A DNA stretch of 64,000 nt, from assembly GCF_003991155.1 (NCBI RefSeq), contig NZ_CP031293.1; one strand, given 5' to 3'. Positions 9,131 through 63,533 of this stretch are shown in pieces. The notes beneath the pieces were generated by a model. The model was not told where the DNA came from and ran no database searches. It saw only the letters and a list, made by a program, of their open reading frames with translations. Each line of letters starts with the position of its first letter. The first letter of the stretch is position 1. The position numbers and the translations under genes are program-made. This DNA comes from Escherichia coli. Its GTDB lineage: Bacteria > Pseudomonadota > Gammaproteobacteria > Enterobacterales > Enterobacteriaceae.

Positions 9131-9171
9131 GAGTGCAGGCAAAGTGGCTCACTCGTCACTGCGGGCATGTT

Positions 9172-9282
9172 TTTCCCCCTCGCCCTTTCAGGGAGAGGGG
9201 CGGGGTGAGGGTAAATATTCGCCCCGGAGCTGGCCTGTACCCCTCACCCTAACCCTCTCCCCAAAGGGGAGAGGGGACTGTT
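9172..9282. repeat. GC-rich imperfect palindromic intergenic repeat element (family not assigned)
   Basis: Segments gggagaggggcggggtgagggta and cccctcaccctaaccctctccccaaaggggagagggg are mutually complementary and internally palindromic; located in the gldA-yijF spacer. Confidence 0.5.
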
Positions 9283-16534: not shown

Positions 16535-17662
16535 ATGTCAAATCTGTTTGCGATTAATGTCTGTAAAACGTTCGGTTGTCGAAATTTGGGATTGGCCTCA
16601 TCGGAAGATTACAGTTGGCCAGACTATAAACTGGGTTTTCCGGCACTGCACTGCCAGGCATGCGGAAGTTACCCCCCTTTGTTTGATGAACAACAATTTC
16701 GTGACTGGTTGTCAGTTCACATGACTGCGTGTGCCATAGAAACAGGGCATTTTTGTCCATCATGCTATTGTAAAGAAAAGATTTTTTATGGCCACAACCC
16801 GCAGGGAACACAACGCGTTCAATGCCGTTCATGCAAAAAAGTCTGGACTCCGAAACAGCAGCCAGCAAGAGAAATTACGTATCCCCAGTCCATTGAAACC
16901 GTTCAACTGTTCATGCCCTTTCAAGGAGCCAGCGCAGTACAAAAGCTCTATGTTTTAGTCAGTCTTGACGCCACTCGTGGCAACATCCTTCATCTCTCCA
17001 CGAATTATACGCAACATCAGACAGGAGACAGTCTGCGGTACAGTTACAGAGGCAATACAGAACCAACTGAGCACCATAGCGATATTGTGCAGAGGGTAGA
17101 TATGCGTGAAGCGCAATTCTTGCGCCGGAGCCAGTTCGATGAAATTCAGTATGGCAGTGCTGTGCTCAAGCGCAATGGCAAGGGAGCCATACTACGCCCG
17201 GTTATCACGGCACACGGGCATTTCAGAATACTGAAAATCCGCTTTCCACATGTCAAAACGCATATCATTTCACACGAATGTTTTCTGAGAGGCGCAATTA
17301 TTACAGCCTGGGCAGATCAGTTCCGCCAACAACAAGGCGAACTTTGGTTCGTAGAAGAAGAAATCAGCGACCGTAACGCTGATATTCCCTGGCATTTTCA
17401 GGGAACGACATACCATGGTTGGTGGCAAAATCAGTGGCAACGCTGGGGGCAGGGGAATAACAGCAAGATGGTCTGCCTGCTCACAGGAGTCTCCTTAGAA
17501 AGGGGCGCAAATGTTTCTCTGGCAACCAGTCGTTGCTTTATCACATGGCTGACAGACCAACACGACTTTACCCAAAGCGCGTTATTATCCGCAGGTCGCG
17601 TAACGAAAATGCTGACCTCACTGGCGTTAAAATACAATGAATCGCTCACTCCATCTTGTTAG
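16535..17662 (+). CDS. Hypothetical Cys-rich protein (multiple CxxC pairs, possible zinc ribbon); function unknown
   Basis: 375 aa ORF; no signal peptide or TM segment; N-terminal CKTFGC, CQAC, CPSCYC, CRSC motifs; divergent from paralog 1 and upstream of paralogs 2 and 3. Confidence 0.6.
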   Translation: MSNLFAINVCKTFGCRNLGLASSEDYSWPDYKLGFPALHCQACGSYPPLFDEQQFRDWLSVHMTACAIETGHFCPSCYCKEKIFYGHNPQGTQRVQCRSCKKVWTPKQQPAREITYPQSIETVQLFMPFQGASAVQKLYVLVSLDATRGNILHLSTNYTQHQTGDSLRYSYRGNTEPTEHHSDIVQRVDMREAQFLRRSQFDEIQYGSAVLKRNGKGAILRPVITAHGHFRILKIRFPHVKTHIISHECFLRGAIITAWADQFRQQQGELWFVEEEISDRNADIPWHFQGTTYHGWWQNQWQRWGQGNNSKMVCLLTGVSLERGANVSLATSRCFITWLTDQHDFTQSALLSAGRVTKMLTSLALKYNESLTPSC

Positions 17663-17891
17663 TCAATACACTCGACAAACGACCATAAATTAATGGGATC
17701 ACTATTTCTCATTTAATTAAATATATGAATGTATGACTGAAAAATATAATCACAGTCAATGTTTAATTAATAACATTATTTGTTACTAAGATCACATAAT
17801 ACTTTCCTGACCTATGCTTACATAAAAATAAGACACGGTGTTCCTTTTATTTAAATAATTCAACCAATGTAACAACCCCTATCAAGGAGGG

Positions 17892-19445
17892 ATGATGAGA
17901 ACTGTATTTACGACTTTATCAGTCATATTCAGCGTGATGTTTTCTCACAGTATACTAGCTCAGGACGTTACTATTTATTATACGAATGATATTCACGCAC
18001 ATGTCAATCCGGCAAAAATTCCCGCTGTTGATAAGAACAGACTTGTAGGTGGTATGGCTAATATTGCAGGCATCGTTAATGAAGCGAAGAAAAAAAACAA
18101 AGATGTCTTTTTCTTTGATGCAGGCGACTATTTTACCGGTCCGTATATCAGTACCCTGACCAAAGGTGAAGCTATTATTGATATCATGAACACCATGCCC
18201 TTTGATGCGGTGTCCGTTGGTAATCACGAGTTCGATCACGGCGTGCCCAATATGGTATCTCAGTTATCAAAAGCAAAATTCCCCATTCTGCTGGGAAATA
18301 TTTACTACACCGATACAAATAAACCAGTTTGGGATCATCCGTGGACCATTATCGAAAAAGATGGTTTAAAGATTGGTGTGATTGGATTGCATGGTGCATT
18401 CGCTTTCTATGATACAGTCGCGGCAAAAGCACGTGAAGGCGTAGAAGCCAGAGACGAAATTAAATATTTAAATAAAGCACTTGCAGAATTAAAAGGTAAA
18501 GTCGACATTACCGTTTTGCTAATTCACGAAGGTGTTCCGGCGCGTCAATCAAGCTTTGGTAGTAAAGATGTGGAGCGGCTACTACAGGCAGATATTGAGA
18601 CAGCTAAAAAAGTGAATGGTGTTGATGTCTTAATTACCGGTCACGCACATGTCGGAACACCGCAACCAATAAAAGTTAATAACACATTAATTGTATCTAC
18701 CGATGCATACGGCACCGACATCGGAAAACTTGTGCTTGATTACAATCCGAAAACAAAGAAAATTGATAGTTATAATGGTGAGTTAATCACCATCTTTGCA
18801 GATCAATTTAAACCTGACACCATCGTTCAAAATACTATCGATAAATGGAGCGTAAAACTTAACAAAATAACACAGGAAGTTGTCGGCCATTCTCCCGTAG
18901 TTTTAACACGTGAGTATGGCAGTTCTTCTTCTACCGGTAATCTTATTCTGGATGCAATGATGGAAAAAACACCTGATGCCATTGCCGGATTTCAAAATAG
19001 CGGTGGGATGCGAGCTGATTTTCCTAAAGGTGATATCACACTGGGAGATGTTATTAGCACATTCCCCTTTAATAATGACCTCATCGAGATGGATTTGACG
19101 GGCCGCGATCTCAAATCGTTGATGACGCATGCAACCAATCTAACTAACGGTGTGTTACAGGTTTCAAAAAGCGTTGCGGTTGTCTATGACAGCAAAAAAC
19201 CACTCAACCAACGGTTAATCTCTTTCACCATTAACGGCAAACCCGTGGAAGATAATCAAACATATCGTATTGCCACGCACTCCTTTTGTGCCAGTGGTGG
19301 TGACGGTTTTGAAGCATTTTTGAATGGAAAAAATGTGAAGACGATACCGGGAACAACCTCGGCGGAATCTATCATCGATTATTTCAAAAATCATAAACCT
19401 GTCACCCCAGACTTAACTAAACGAGTCATGGACGTCGCCAAATAA
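17892..19445 (+). CDS. Secreted 5'-nucleotidase-family metallophosphoesterase, paralog 2
   Basis: 517 aa; signal peptide ending SILA-QD; same phosphoesterase motif set ([32 protein letters not shown]); SD aggagg upstream; the true start may be the second ATG at 17895. Confidence 0.85.
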   Translation: MMRTVFTTLSVIFSVMFSHSILAQDVTIYYTNDIHAHVNPAKIPAVDKNRLVGGMANIAGIVNEAKKKNKDVFFFDAGDYFTGPYISTLTKGEAIIDIMNTMPFDAVSVGNHEFDHGVPNMVSQLSKAKFPILLGNIYYTDTNKPVWDHPWTIIEKDGLKIGVIGLHGAFAFYDTVAAKAREGVEARDEIKYLNKALAELKGKVDITVLLIHEGVPARQSSFGSKDVERLLQADIETAKKVNGVDVLITGHAHVGTPQPIKVNNTLIVSTDAYGTDIGKLVLDYNPKTKKIDSYNGELITIFADQFKPDTIVQNTIDKWSVKLNKITQEVVGHSPVVLTREYGSSSSTGNLILDAMMEKTPDAIAGFQNSGGMRADFPKGDITLGDVISTFPFNNDLIEMDLTGRDLKSLMTHATNLTNGVLQVSKSVAVVYDSKKPLNQRLISFTINGKPVEDNQTYRIATHSFCASGGDGFEAFLNGKNVKTIPGTTSAESIIDYFKNHKPVTPDLTKRVMDVAK

Positions 19446-19485
19446 AATATCATTTATCAGTCTATATATTTAACAAGGAATGCGA

Positions 19486-21105
19486 ATGAAAACAGTGCAG
19501 CGTACTTTACTTGCCGCAACATTGCTGACTATTTTTTCGGTCTCAGTCATGGCGCAGGATGTCACGATTATTTATACAAATGATCTTCACGCTCATGTGG
19601 ATTCTTATAAAGTGCCGTATATCGCAGACGGAAAACGCGACATTGGCGGCTTTGCCAATATATCTACTTTAGTAAAACAAGAGAAAGCGAAAAATAAAGC
19701 CACCTTTTATTTTGATGCTGGAGACTATTTCACCGGCCCTTATATCAGCAGTCTGACAAAGGGCGAAGCAATAATTGACATTATGAATACCATGCCTTTT
19801 GACGCAGTATCAATCGGTAATCATGAGTTTGACCATGGCTGGGATAATGCCCTGCGACAATTAAGCAAAGCGAATTTTCCTGTTTTATTGGGCAATGTTT
19901 ATCATAAAGAGAGTGAGAACCCCTTCTGGAACAAGCCCTACACCATCCTGGAAAAAGATGGCATCAAGATTGGTATTATTGGGCTACACGGCGTATTTGC
20001 ATTTAATGATACGGTCTCGGAGCTCTCTCTCCAGGGACTCGATAATGACAATAATAACCGCTTTGATAAATCTTCCGAGACCCTTAAGAATCAGGGGATT
20101 GAAGCACGTGATGAAGTGAAGTATTTGCAGCATTATATCGACGAGTTACGTGATAAGGTTGACCTCACTGTGGCGCTGGTTCATGAAGGCGTTCCGGCGC
20201 GTCAGTCCAGCATTGGCAATACAGATGTTAGACGCGCTCTTGATAAAGATATTCAAACCGCTAGCAAGGTGAAAGGATTGGATATTCTGATTACCGGGCA
20301 TGCCCACGTCGGAACGCCAGAACCAATCAAAGTCGGCAACACCTTAATCCTTTCGACTGATAGTGGCGGTATCGATATTGGTAAATTAGTCCTTGATGTC
20401 AACCCTACAGCTCGTACCCATAAAATGAAGAGCTTTGAGCTGAAAACAGTTTATGCCGATGAATGGATACCCGATCCAACGACACAAAAAGTTATCAATG
20501 GCTGGAATAAAAAACTGGCGGATATTGTACGCCAACCAGTAGGTGAATCATCGATTGCATTAACTCGCGCCTATGGTGAGTCATCGCAACTAGGCAACCT
20601 GTTTACCGATGCAATGCTTGTCGCTGCTCCGACTGCACAGATTGCATTGATAAACTCCGGCAGCTTACGTGCGGATATAAATGCAGGCACGATTACCTTT
20701 GGCGACATTACCAGTACATTCCCCTTCAAGAATGAACTTACTGAAATGGATCTCAGCGGTAAGGATCTGCGTAACCTACTGGAACACGGGGCATCGCTTA
20801 CCAATGGCATCCTGCAAATGTCAAAAGGCGCAGAAATGCGCTATACCCCGCAGAAACCAGTAGGTCAGCGCATAGTATCTTTTAAAATTAATGGTGAAGA
20901 GATCGTTGATACGAATATTTACCATGTTGCAACAACGACTTTCCTTGCACTGGGGGGCGATGGTTTTCTGGCATTCAAAGAAGGGAAAAATGTTCAGGTC
21001 CGCGCCGGAAATAACATGTCCGATGTCGTGATCGATTATTTGAAGAAAGGCCACAAGATTACGCCTGCACAGGTAAATGAAATGCGGGTGGACGTTAGCA
21101 AATAA
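19486..21105 (+). CDS. Secreted 5'-nucleotidase-family metallophosphoesterase, paralog 3 (closest to paralog 1, with an extra low-complexity insert)
   Basis: About 539 aa from MKTVQRTLLAATLL (the ORF track starts two codons earlier at 19480); signal peptide VMA-QD; motifs as in paralog 1; insert SELSLQGLDNDNNNRFDKSSETLKNQ absent from paralogs 1 and 2. Confidence 0.85.
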   Translation: MKTVQRTLLAATLLTIFSVSVMAQDVTIIYTNDLHAHVDSYKVPYIADGKRDIGGFANISTLVKQEKAKNKATFYFDAGDYFTGPYISSLTKGEAIIDIMNTMPFDAVSIGNHEFDHGWDNALRQLSKANFPVLLGNVYHKESENPFWNKPYTILEKDGIKIGIIGLHGVFAFNDTVSELSLQGLDNDNNNRFDKSSETLKNQGIEARDEVKYLQHYIDELRDKVDLTVALVHEGVPARQSSIGNTDVRRALDKDIQTASKVKGLDILITGHAHVGTPEPIKVGNTLILSTDSGGIDIGKLVLDVNPTARTHKMKSFELKTVYADEWIPDPTTQKVINGWNKKLADIVRQPVGESSIALTRAYGESSQLGNLFTDAMLVAAPTAQIALINSGSLRADINAGTITFGDITSTFPFKNELTEMDLSGKDLRNLLEHGASLTNGILQMSKGAEMRYTPQKPVGQRIVSFKINGEEIVDTNIYHVATTTFLALGGDGFLAFKEGKNVQVRAGNNMSDVVIDYLKKGHKITPAQVNEMRVDVSK

Positions 21106-21117
21106 TAAAAAAATTAT

Positions 21118-21150
21118 AATGCCATTCATTCACTGAATGGCATTATTTTT
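21118..21150 (+). terminator. Intrinsic terminator after nucleotidase paralog 3
   Basis: Perfect palindrome aatgccattcattcactgaatggcatt followed by attttt. Confidence 0.65.
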
Positions 21151-21183
21151 CTCTAAATCAACAATAGATAATGAGATATATTT

Positions 21184-22044
21184 ATGTGTATAAAAAAGCA
21201 CGGGATAGCGTTATCGATTCTATTAATACCTTGCATTGGAAACGCTCAGGAAATTAAAAGTGAGGAAGGCTGGTTACATCAAAGCTTGAATGTCATTGGT
21301 CGCACAGACTCTCGCTTTGGCCCAAGGCTGACTAACGACCTCTACCCTGAATATACTGTAGCAGGAAGAAAAGACTGGTTTGATTTTTATGGTTATGTTG
21401 ATCTACCAAAATTCTTTGGCGTCGGCAGTCACTATGATGTTGGGATCTGGGATGAGGGCTCACCCCTATTTACGGAAATAGAACCTCGGTTTTCCATTGA
21501 CAAATTGACCGGATTAAATCTTGCGTTCGGCCCTTTTAAAGAATGGTTCATTGCAAACAACTATGTCTATGATATGGGTGACAACCAGTCATCCCGGCAA
21601 AGTACATGGTATATGGGGCTTGGTACAGATATCGACACGGGTCTACCAATTAAGCTTTCTGCCAATATATACGCCAAGTATCAGTGGCAAAACTATGGTG
21701 CCGCTAATGAAAATGAATGGGACGGATATCGATTCAAAATAAAATATAGCATTCCTCTTACCCATTTATTCGGAGGGCGATTGGTATACAATAGTTTTAC
21801 TAACTTTGATTTTGGCTCCGATCTTGCGGACAAATCACACAATAATAAACGAACCAGTAATGCTATTGCTTCAAGCCATATCCTTTCCCTGCTATATGAA
21901 CACTGGAAATTTGCATTTACACTACGTTATTTTCACAACGGTGGACAATGGAATGCTGGGGAGAAAGTTAACTTCGGAGATGGTCCATTTGAATTAAAAA
22001 ACACAGGATGGGGAACCTATACTACTATTGGTTATCAATTTTAA
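21184..22044 (+). CDS. Tsx-family outer-membrane nucleoside-specific channel protein (paralog of tsx)
   Basis: 286 aa; signal peptide; shares recalled Tsx blocks [79 protein letters not shown]; ends in a C-terminal aromatic residue (GYQF) typical of beta-barrels. Confidence 0.85.
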
Positions 22045-22221
22045 ATCAGGTGATGTTTTAGATATTTTTACTTAATGCCATTTTGTAATTGTCATAAATA
22101 ACTTCACCATTCACACTGTGAATTCATCGCTCAACACAAAAGCCCCCTTATTACCGGGGCACTGACCAAAGGCAAAATGACAATCAATCACCACCTCCGC
22201 AGGAGGTGGTTTAGAGGTGAC

Positions 22222-22250
22222 AACAAAAGCTGGCAACTGCCAGCTTTTGT
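22222..22250 (-). terminator. metL terminator hairpin (aaaagctggc-aact-gccagctttt)
   Basis: Perfect 10 bp inverted repeat flanked by A/T runs, about 12 bp downstream of the metL stop. Confidence 0.7.
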
Positions 22251-22260
22251 TCAATAATCA

Positions 22261-35606: not shown

Positions 35607-36293
35607 ATGGACGTATTCATGCAGAATATTATTCTTTTATTTATATATTTATTACTTATAGTCGTTAACCATTTCCGCTACAAATTCCTTTTGTCTGGCA
35701 ACACGGGTGAAATGATTTTATATTTTGCTAACGTATTTTTTAACCCACTTGCCTTATCATTTATTATCGCCGCAATCATCTGTATAACGATAAAAAAAAG
35801 AAGCAGCCACAGCTTTATTCGCGGCACTTGTTGGTTAATGGGATTATTTCTTATCTATAGCAGCTATACAGTGTGGGAACGACACAGCACATGGGATTAT
35901 ACTTTCCCGGGGCCAGGTATCACCGTCACAGTTCCGAGCAAACAGTGGGTTGCCAATATAGTAAAACAAGGACCAATCCTGGTGACTCGGGATGCCCATG
36001 CTATTTTAGTTATTGTTGCCTTCTCACAAAATGAACTCGGTGTGCATTCAATCGAGGAACTTACCGCGACTCAAAACGGAACTGCACAAATGCATGTTTG
36101 TGATGTTAAGGGATTTGCCTGCGCTTATCAGGAAGGAATTCAAACAATGAGTGATGGCAAAATAAGACATGCTATTTTCATGACTCTACTGGATAACACT
36201 AATTTGATACGACTGGTCGCAGCTATCGACCCAGATTATTTGGACGAATATCAAGAAGAAGTAATGAAAATGATACTTTCTGCCCATCAATAA
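35607..36293 (+). CDS. Hypothetical 3-TM membrane protein, islet paralog A
   Basis: 228 aa AT-rich ORF; three N-terminal hydrophobic helices then a soluble domain; shares motif blocks with the downstream paralog (LLSGxxG, IKK, RGxCWxxG, WxYTF, ITVTxP, MxSA); the start may be the internal ATG at 35619. Confidence 0.6.
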   Translation: MDVFMQNIILLFIYLLLIVVNHFRYKFLLSGNTGEMILYFANVFFNPLALSFIIAAIICITIKKRSSHSFIRGTCWLMGLFLIYSSYTVWERHSTWDYTFPGPGITVTVPSKQWVANIVKQGPILVTRDAHAILVIVAFSQNELGVHSIEELTATQNGTAQMHVCDVKGFACAYQEGIQTMSDGKIRHAIFMTLLDNTNLIRLVAAIDPDYLDEYQEEVMKMILSAHQ

Positions 36294-36325
36294 TCTGATG
36301 TGCATGTTAATAATAAGGGATTGAT

Positions 36326-37042
36326 ATGAGATACGTTATCTTATTAATACTATGGATAATAACTACTTTTCTTAGTCATCTTCAGCACAGCAACCTACTG
36401 TCTGGAGATCCTGGCATGGTTGGCGAGTATATCGGTTCAGTATTTCTGGGGCCGTTGTTACTTCCCGTGCTTGTGTCAGGTATTCTGTGCGCATTTATTA
36501 AAAAAACACGTAACTTCGCCAGTTTTACTCGCGGGTGCTGTTGGGTATTGGGAATCCTGCTTTTATCCAAAGTCGGCAATACGTTTCGTATGTTTACCCC
36601 GTGGCAATATACCTTTGAGAATGCTGCGATAACCGTGACTATCCCGAACCGACACTGGAATACGGTTTCCATTAGTACTAATGAAACCATTGATATAAGA
36701 AGTGAGGATAATAGCGTCTTCATTTCTGCTTTCCGCCTGCCCGCAGGACGTAGCGCCGATGACCCGCTGGAAGCGTTAAAGAAGAAGCAGCGAGACAATC
36801 TCAAGGATCAATACAATGAGGAAGCCTTCCAGTTTCATGATTGTAATGCCAAACATTTCACCTGTAAGTATCAGGATGTGTTGATAAATTTTGATGGTCA
36901 GCAGAAAAGAACCATCAGTGTTTATCTTGAAGACACCCCCAGGGCTGTGGGGATCATTGCATTAATGGCGCCAGATACGGCAGATAAATATCGCCAACAG
37001 GCGATGGAGATTATGCTTTCCGCTAAAAATGCAGTGAAGTAA
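36326..37042 (+). CDS. Hypothetical 3-TM membrane protein, islet paralog B
   Basis: 238 aa AT-rich ORF with the same topology and motif blocks as paralog A; followed by hairpin aaggcgccttgcggcgcct. Confidence 0.6.
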   Translation: MRYVILLILWIITTFLSHLQHSNLLSGDPGMVGEYIGSVFLGPLLLPVLVSGILCAFIKKTRNFASFTRGCCWVLGILLLSKVGNTFRMFTPWQYTFENAAITVTIPNRHWNTVSISTNETIDIRSEDNSVFISAFRLPAGRSADDPLEALKKKQRDNLKDQYNEEAFQFHDCNAKHFTCKYQDVLINFDGQQKRTISVYLEDTPRAVGIIALMAPDTADKYRQQAMEIMLSAKNAVK

Positions 37043-37080
37043 AAAATAAGGCGCCTTGCGGCGCCTCTACATGGAAGAGA

Positions 37081-37374
<294 letters not shown>

Positions 37375-47206: not shown

Positions 47207-47307
47207 ATGCCGGATGCGGCGCGAACGCCTTATCCGGCCTACAAAAGTTTGCAAATTCAATAAATTGCAGAATTCATGTAGGCCTGATAAGCGAAGCGCA
47301 TCAGGCA
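47207..47307. repeat. BIME: two REP elements in inverted orientation (sbp-pfkA spacer)
   Basis: gccggatgcggcgcgaacgccttatccggcctaca and its inverted partner tgtaggcctgataagcgaagcgcatcaggcat, separated by an AT-rich linker. Confidence 0.8.
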
Positions 47308-52282: not shown

Positions 52283-53560
<1,278 letters not shown>

Positions 53561-53589
53561 CAACAGCGCCTGACGGCGCTGTGTCTGGC

Positions 53590-53650
<61 letters not shown>

Positions 53651-59419: not shown

Positions 59420-62432
<3,013 letters not shown>

Positions 62433-62439
62433 ACACTGC

Positions 62440-62672
62440 CGGATGCGGCACAAGTGCCTTATCCGGCCTACGGGTCGGCAATAGTTGTAGGCCTGATAAG
62501 ACGCGACAGCGTCGCATCAGGCATTGATTGCCGGATGCGGCACGAGCGCCATATCCGGCCTACGGGTCGGCAATAGTTGTAGGCCTGATAAGACGCGACA
62601 GCGTCGCATCAGGCATTGATTGCCGGATGCGGCACGAGTGCCTTATCCGGCCTACAGATCGTACATCCGGCA
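62440..62672. repeat. Tandem REP/BIME array in the rhaA-rhaD spacer (about 98 bp unit repeated)
   Basis: Unit ccggatgcggcacNagNgccNtatccggcctacgggtcggcaatagttgtaggcctgataagacgcgacagcgtcgcatcaggcattgattg occurs twice in tandem with a third partial copy. Confidence 0.8.
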
Positions 62673-62708
62673 ACAGGCACGGACGTCCAATTAACAGGAA
62701 CACAGAAC

Positions 62709-63533
62709 ATGCAAAACATTACCCAGTCCTGGTTTGTCCAGGGAATGATCAAAGCCACCACCGACGCCTGGCTGAAAGGCTGGGACGAGCGCAATGGTGG
62801 TAACCTGACGCTGCGCCTGGATGACGCCGATATCGCGCCTTATCACGGCAACTTTCATGCACAACCGCGCTATATCCCGCTCAGCCAGCCCATGCCTTTA
62901 CTGGCAAATACACCGTTTATTGTCACCGGCTCCGGCAAATTCTTCCGTAACGTCCAGCTTGATCCTGCGGCTAACTTAGGCGTCGTAAAAGTCGACAGCG
63001 ACGGCGCGGGCTACCATATTCTCTGGGGGTTAACCAACGAAGCCGTCCCGACATCCGAACTTCCGGCTCACTTTCTCTCTCATTGCGAGCGCATTAAAGC
63101 CACCAACGGTAAAGATCGGGTGATCATGCACTGCCATGCCACCAACCTGATCGCCCTTACCTACGTACTGGAAAACGACACCGCGGTCTTCACTCGCCAA
63201 CTGTGGGAAGGCAGCACCGAATGTCTGGTAGTGTTCCCGGATGGCGTCGGCATTTTGCCGTGGATGGTGCCCGGCACGGACGAAATCGGCCAGGCGACCG
63301 CACAGGAAATGCAAAAACATTCGCTGGTGTTGTGGCCCTTCCACGGCGTCTTCGGCAGCGGTCCGACACTGGATGAAACATTCGGTTTAATCGACACCGC
63401 AGAAAAATCAGCACAAGTATTAGTGAAGGTTTATTCGATGGGCGGCATGAAACAGACCATCAGTCGTGAAGAGCTGATAGCACTCGGCCAGCGTTTCGGC
63501 GTTACACCACTTGCCAGTGCGCTGGCGCTGTAA
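62709..63533 (+). CDS. rhaD: Rhamnulose-1-phosphate aldolase
   Basis: 274 aa from [27 protein letters not shown]; the ORF-track start at 62616 runs back into the REP array and is an artefact. Confidence 0.95.

Follow-up and report, generated by a model that had tools for sequence, protein, structure and literature searches.

REPs at malE-malF and elsewhere were reportedly described as stabilisers of mRNA by Newbury and Higgins in 1987-88, and Choi and co-workers are said to have placed target sites of IS621 in REPs in 2003. The natural target of IS621 in REPs is the sequence ATCAGGCCTAC, which has a CT core and is recognised by the bridge RNA (Durrant et al., 2024; PMC11208160). REPs down-regulate translation if they lie no more than 15 nt from a stop codon, according to the account of Liang et al. 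(2015) that is summarised in PMC12306157. The best experimental model for a combined role as stabiliser and attenuator is REP325 (naRNA1-6) in the yjdM-yjdN operon (Qian et al., 2015, PMC4550694; Harris et al., 2026, preprint). Both protection of the mRNA and attenuation of read-through have been demonstrated for REP325 in yjdMN, and tandem gene pairs that contain REPs have raised upstream/downstream expression ratios genome-wide (bioRxiv 10.64898/2026.03.23.713779). For fragments of REP325 with two to four hairpins, Rho dependence was not detectable (bioRxiv 10.64898/2026.03.23.713779).

BIME-2 elements are made up of Y and Z2 REPs in alternating orientation, occur as tandem copies with short linkers, and vary in copy number by locus and by strain (Ton-Hoang et al., 2012; PMC3333891). 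A BIME-2 between rhaA and rhaD has already been catalogued in E. coli K-12 W3110, under the name 'BIMEs2 rhaA>-rhaD>' and with a length of 401 bp (Sutormin et al., 2019; PMC6379681, Table DS3). Gyrase cleavage sites are over-represented in BIME-2, preferentially in the Y REPs (Sutormin et al., 2019; PMC6379681). The rhaA-rhaD element itself is listed with four sites for Cfx, two for RifCfx, one for Micro and none for Oxo (PMC6379681, Table DS3).

Here we describe the same locus in a stretch of 64,000 nucleotides from E. coli (GCF_003991155.1, contig NZ_CP031293.1), referred to below as the window. We are highly confident that the feature is a BIME-2-type array with the order Y(+)-Z2(-)-Y(+)-Z2(-)-Y(+), situated in the untranslated rhaA-rhaD spacer of rhaBAD, and that it represents a two-unit allele (n = 2) of a locus with four units in K-12. 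The array is real but ordinary. The locus is catalogued, and the kind of element, its copy-number polymorphism, its binding by gyrase and its targeting by IS621 are all documented. The positions of the features are given in Table 1.

Table 1. Features of the rhaA-rhaD repeat array, its flanking genes and the resident IS621 copy, with positions in the window.
Feature	Position	Strand	Remarks
IS621 (IS110 family), 1,279 bp	52368-53646	+	326-aa recombinase ORF at 52560-53540; inserted in a Z2 REP between ATCAGGCCT and AC
rhaA (L-rhamnose isomerase)	61167-62432	+	NCBIfam equivalog, 1.8e-248; TAA stop at 62430-62432
ACACT lead-in	62433-62437	+	5 nt, identical in every allele examined
Repeat unit 1, 92 bp	62437-62528	+	Y REP, 15-nt tail-to-tail linker, inverted Z2 REP, 7-nt head-to-head linker
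Y REP 1 (GCCGGATGCGGCACAAGTGCCTTATCCGGCCTAC)	62438-62471	+	30/34 identical to the published Y consensus; RNA hairpin -20 kcal/mol, z = -4.1
15-nt tail-to-tail linker (GGGTCGGCAATAGTT)	62472-62486		
Z2 REP 1, inverted	62487-62522	-	35/36 identical to the Z2 consensus; hairpin -21.9 kcal/mol, z = -6.1
naRNA4 match	62490-62560	-	70.8 bits, gathering score 59.5
7-nt head-to-head linker (ATTGATT)	62523-62529		
Repeat unit 2, 92 bp	62529-62620	+	3 substitutions relative to unit 1
Y REP 2, variant with CGAGCGCCATAT	62530-62563	+	one upper-stem base pair lost
15-nt linker	62564-62578		
Z2 REP 2, inverted	62579-62614	-	35/36 identical to the Z2 consensus
naRNA4 match	62582-62652	-	74.4 bits, gathering score 59.5
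7-nt linker	62615-62621		
Partial unit 3, 35 nt	62621-62655	+	equals the complete third Y REP
Y REP 3	62622-62655	+	
Unique 53-nt tail ('tail A')	62656-62708	+	REP-head remnant CATCCGGCAA at 62664-62673; rhaD Shine-Dalgarno AGGA at 62696-62699
rhaD (rhamnulose-1-phosphate aldolase)	62709-63533	+	NCBIfam equivalog, 2.6e-143; ATG at 62709; downstream of the array

Tandem Repeats Finder returned a single tandem array at 62437-62655 (period 92, 2.4 copies, 96% matches, no indels, score 417), which takes up most of the 276-bp spacer between rhaA and rhaD (62433-62708). This result, together with the identity of the repeats to the Y and Z2 consensus sequences, bears out the original prediction of a tandemly duplicated REP/BIME unit at this position, and the two oppositely oriented REP palindromes it described are seen in each unit. 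The predicted unit length of roughly 98 bp was too long, the period being 92 bp. Unit 1 and unit 2 differ by substitutions at 62452 (A/G), 62455 (T/C) and 62459 (T/A), paired with positions 62544, 62547 and 62551, respectively. All three fall within the upper stem and loop of the Y REP, in agreement with the few substitutions expected in the first REP stem, for which caagtgccttat and cgagcgccatat had been quoted. A third, partial copy is also present as foreseen, but it does not extend to the ribosome-binding region of rhaD: the unique tail intervenes, and the AGGA motif lies 40 nt past the last REP.

The REPs were located with a custom regular expression; a generic REP pattern allowing at most three mismatches gave only one REP in the window, its loop length being too rigid. 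The orientations of the five REPs alternate (Y+, Z2-, Y+, Z2-, Y+), as is typical of BIME-2. The Y REPs are identical to the consensus sequences of Durrant et al. (PMC11208160) at 29-30 of 34 positions and the Z2 REPs at 35 of 36. Where the Y REPs depart from their consensus, they do so in the upper stem, for the most part by compensatory changes. All five are extragenic, within the rhaA-rhaD spacer, and form stable stem-loops, i.e., GC-rich imperfect palindromes with the conserved CTAC tail. We did not find the IHF consensus WATCAANNNNTTR on either strand of the spacer, and the linkers are only 7 and 15 nt long, as expected of BIME-2. The array is set apart from BIME-1 because its linkers lack the IHF consensus.

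Folded alone, every REP gives an RNA hairpin of -20 to -21.9 kcal/mol (z -3.8 to -6.1). The RNA fold of the whole spacer reaches -138.7 kcal/mol (z = -6.8). The identity of rhaB, like that of rhaA and rhaD, was confirmed by an NCBIfam equivalog model, and rhaS and rhaR are divergent upstream. The first REP stem starts at 62438, 5 nt past the rhaA stop codon, and so belongs to the class of stop-proximal REPs that lie within 15 nt of a stop (Liang et al., 2015). As with the malE-malF-type REP stabilisers and the stop-proximal REPs of Liang, Rudd and Deutscher (2015), the rha REPs are intercistronic within an operon; an effect of the rha REPs on expression would follow from the analogy.

The closest relative is the K-12 allele. 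Both alleles occupy the same locus and share Y and Z2 REPs, a 92-bp unit, the ACACT lead-in, and linkers of 7 and 15 nt. The K-12 allele, however, has four Z2-Y units, nine REPs and a 450-bp spacer, against two units, five REPs and 276 bp in the window, and its tail is 43 nt long instead of 53 nt. The two alleles further differ at single positions in the loops of the Y REPs. The fourth Y REP of K-12 (L003 1015-1048) ends in a Z2-like tail, TTATCAGGCCTAC, by which the sense strand gains one more IS621 target. A second chimeric REP, with Y-type ends and a Z2-type core, was seen in another record (L013 598-633). The chimeric REPs suggest gene conversion or recombination between neighbouring REPs. 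The DNA of the array is a preferred binding and cleavage site of DNA gyrase in the K-12 allele, where this has been demonstrated, and by analogy the window allele probably is one as well.

REP325 is likewise an intra-operon BIME-2 with alternating Y and Z2 REPs between co-oriented genes. It differs from the rha array in its period (100 bp vs. 92 bp), in its linkers (13 and 17 nt vs. 7 and 15 nt) and in its number of units (six vs. two). Its polarity relative to the mRNA is also the opposite: the sense RNA of REP325 reads inverted Y and then Z2, whereas that of rha reads Y and then inverted Z2.

Copy number was compared across E. coli genomes. When 62300-62800 was compared by megablast with 5,426 complete E. 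coli genomes, virtually all of them had a match at the rhaA-rhaD junction, of varying span. A query made up of the flanks only (400 bp of rhaA and 400 bp of rhaD) found 5,362 genomes, of which 5,341 had the two flanks no more than 900 bp apart. In a spread sample of 59 genomes, the shorter spacers measured 82 bp (11 genomes), 174 bp (10), 176 bp (2), 184 bp (2) and 241 bp (8), and the longer ones 266 bp (8), 276 bp (4), 450 bp (12), 458 bp (1) and 460 bp (1). Representative alleles share a single architecture, ACACT-Y-(linker-Z2-linker-Y)n-tail, where n is 0, 1, 2 or 4. With the 53-nt tail of the window these values of n correspond to spacers of 92, 184, 276 and 460 bp; with the 43-nt tail, found in K-12 and O157, they correspond to 82, 174, 266 and 450 bp. 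One step in length equals one 92-bp Z2-Y unit exactly. Every allele examined retains at least one Y REP, located 5 nt past the rhaA stop, and alleles with this single REP (82 or 92 bp) are common, making up 11/59 of the sampled genomes. The proposal that copy number varies between strains, for which a comparison of rhaA-rhaD spacer lengths had been suggested, is thus upheld by an allelic series on two tail types.

The spacer also differs between genomes whose flanks are nearly identical. Pairs of 184 and 92 bp, 460 and 266 bp, and 82 and 458 bp were found with flank differences of 1/600, 2/600 and 3/600, respectively. Since copy number differs between almost identical flank haplotypes, whole-unit gains and losses are recurrent.

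A third class of spacers, 241 and 328 bp in length, contains the first Y REP only, followed by an unrelated, GC-rich dispersed repeat. This repeat stands in place of the Z2-Y units in 8/59 of the sampled genomes, has inverted-repeat ends (CCCTCACCCC...GGGGAGAGGG) and resembles 'box C', of which it may be a copy (L008 434-674 and L007 434-761). The longer of these two copies includes an exact 87-bp tandem duplication of the GC-rich repeat, and a related copy is found in the window at about 9167-9281 (-).

In 21 records, a distance of over 900 bp separates the rhaA flank from the rhaD flank. Five of these are IS621 insertions, discussed below, and one is a record boundary. The latter (H100, 50% coverage) had been considered as an insertion in the spacer and was rejected, as the record merely starts and ends inside the array. 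The remaining 15 or so widely split records may be other insertions or rearrangements.

The window itself contains a complete IS621 copy (Table 1), located by comparison of the whole window with FDAARGOS_497, an otherwise similar strain from which this copy is absent. The genes cpxA and yiiM converge here, and IS621 sits between their 3′ ends, inserted in the Z2 REP that forms part of a BIME-2 unit (52289-52366). At its junctions ATCAGGCCT is followed by TG and ACAGTATCT by AC (atcaggcct joined to tgtatt, and acagtatct joined to ac). Homologous copies carry the RefSeq name 'IS110-like element IS621 family transposase'. The original prediction had stated that the IS110-family element of the window was inserted in the same REP type as that of the rha array, and this proved correct. 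Another candidate for the IS110 element, a 376-aa 'hypothetical protein' near metL, was dropped once IS621 was found; RefSeq shows no IS110 in this region of FDAARGOS_497.

The 11-mer ATCAGGCCTAC occurs four times in the window and was absent from 100 shuffles. Two of the four are perfect targets in the rha array, at 62487-62497 (-) and 62579-62589 (-), one in each Z2 REP. We searched for insertions with a synthetic query in which IS621 was placed at a Z2 target of the rha array; hits were judged by contiguity with rhaA or rhaD and then by inspection of the junctions. IS621 was found in the rha array in 5/5,426 complete genomes, in every case exactly between ATCAGGCCT and AC in a Z2 REP. The array had been put forward as a potential further target, with a check for insertions in related genomes, and these five genomes confirm that it is used. 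The insertions are spread over four array alleles (the 450-, 276-, 184- and 174-bp types), and the recombinase gene is antisense to rhaBAD in all five. One of them (AP021933) carries IS621 in Z2 REP 1 of the window's own allele, including the distinctive variant of Y REP 2, and its flanks show 0/600 differences from those of the window. Compared with the IS621 target sites described in REPs (PMC11208160), the rha Z2 REPs carry the exact 11-nt target, the insertions are at the CT core, and the mechanism is the same. What is added to the known targets is the occupation of the rha array in 5/5,426 genomes.

Several other features of the window were noted. FDAARGOS_497 is 100% identical to the window over 501 bp at the rha spacer, but it has several structural differences across the window as a whole. 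Its rhaT (rhamnose/proton symporter) is annotated as frameshifted (L001 6337-7370), in a strain whose rha spacer is 100% identical to that of the window. Just downstream of rraA, at 35557-37085, the window has two adjacent paralogous ORFs of 228 and 238 aa that look membrane-associated; the corresponding stretch of FDAARGOS_497 is only some 90 bp long. The window and this strain also differ over 4.8 kb of the metL-metF region (17454-22262). Around 27119-27127 the window is without a block of about 7.4 kb (rhsC, an RHS fragment and IS1H) that is present in FDAARGOS_497 between rpmE and yiiX. At 47210-47305, an AT-rich linker of 34 nt lies between a Y REP and a Z-type REP of shorter length, in a BIME-1-like arrangement. 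This arrangement overlaps an above-threshold Rfam match to the ES036/CssrF sRNA (47244-47285, +) and contains a perfect IS621 target at 47278-47288 (-).

With regard to origin, the allelic series points to whole 92-bp Z2-Y units having been repeatedly gained and lost. The likely route would be unequal homologous recombination or replication slippage between the direct repeats, and TnpA-REP, the REP-associated transposase, may also contribute. Each Z2 REP offers its 11-nt target to the bridge RNA of IS621. Once co-transcribed from the rhaB promoter, each REP of the array would fold into a hairpin. By analogy with the systems described above, these hairpins would block 3′-to-5′ exonucleases and stabilise the upstream rhaBA message, and they would also partly attenuate read-through into rhaD, so that the rhaA:rhaD ratio is biased upstream. 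The first hairpin, close to the rhaA stop, may in addition stall terminating ribosomes and lower the yield of RhaA. Because fragments of REP325 with two to four hairpins showed no Rho dependence, the five-hairpin rha array may attenuate only weakly. Nor is the spacer, highly structured and with a C/G ratio of 0.95, a typical Rho-loading site, and REP325, the model for this role, is unlike the rha array in period, linkers and polarity.

The extra units might instead be selfish or neutral repeat DNA, with a copy number that drifts by slippage or recombination and has no meaningful effect on rhaBAD. We regard this as possible, if rather unlikely. The alleles with n = 0, 1, 2 and 4 are all at appreciable frequency, copy number flips between near-identical haplotypes, some strains have the unrelated GC-rich repeat instead of Z2-Y units, and five sequenced isolates keep an operon that IS621 has split, all of which would agree with drift. 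Since single-REP alleles are common, the extra units are dispensable and may be close to neutral. However, the stop-proximal Y REP is kept in every allele examined, and both the genome-wide data and those from REP325 show that REPs bias upstream/downstream expression. The neutral reading is compatible with the identity of the array as a BIME-2; it disputes only the functional importance of the array.

It is very improbable that the array encodes naRNA4-like nucleoid-associated small RNAs (RF02564) that act with HU in chromosome condensation. naRNA4 is the only Rfam family matched in the spacer, and it has two matches above the gathering score (Table 1) and four in the K-12 allele. The above-threshold matches are, however, exclusively antisense to rhaBAD, the sole known transcription across the array, and the matches on the plus strand stay below the threshold (53.9 and 48.7 bits). 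The polarity of REP325, opposite to that of rha, accounts for the antisense position of the matches. The Rfam model, which scores 95-111 bits on its own REP325 locus, is in effect one Y/Z2 unit of REP325, so a match restates that a BIME-2 unit is present and does not denote an RNA gene. Given the antisense orientation of the model and the lack of a promoter-like site on either strand, we do not class the feature as an naRNA gene. Furthermore, REP325/naRNA4 does not measurably compact the nucleoid according to the 2026 preprint (bioRxiv 10.64898/2026.03.23.713779).

We give slightly less credence still to an internal promoter or intrinsic terminator in the spacer that would separate rhaD from rhaBA, which might be suspected from an intercistronic gap of 276 bp, unusually long for an operon. 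Simple consensus scans of both strands of 62300-62800 found neither a sigma-70-like promoter nor an intrinsic terminator (a GC-rich hairpin with a T-tract), and the REP hairpins are without a U-tract. The array thus lies inside the transcription unit. Moralejo and colleagues reportedly found, in 1993, promoter activity only upstream of rhaB, which counts against an internal promoter. Finally, assemblies made from short reads can get tandem repeats of about 92 bp wrong, and one RefSeq record (H100) begins and ends inside the array, but the suggestion that the duplication is an assembly artefact, i.e., a collapsed or expanded repeat, is ruled out for practical purposes, because the identical 276-bp allele is present in several independent complete genomes (108 records are at least 99% identical to the 62300-62800 query) and in AP021933 with IS621 in one of its units, and because the lengths in different strains fall on an exact 92-bp ladder.

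Read as a BIME-2 array within rhaBAD, the locus is of some practical interest. Expression systems make wide use of the rhaBAD region, whose spacer varies in length from 82 to 460 bp between strains. The use of predicted IS621 targets in the wild is documented here, including in a strain with flanks identical to those of the window. The natural series of n = 0-4 is a ready test bed for the effects of REP dose and orientation within an operon and, as the polarity of the rha array is opposite to that of REP325, the array would test the effect of REP orientation on attenuation as opposed to stabilisation. Tentatively, the natural series (n = 0, 1, 2 and 4, two tails, and the replaced and IS621-split alleles) might be an evolvable dial on the RhaA:RhaD ratio, doubtful as this is at present. 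If so, changes in copy number over short timescales would set the transcription and mRNA stability that reach rhaD.
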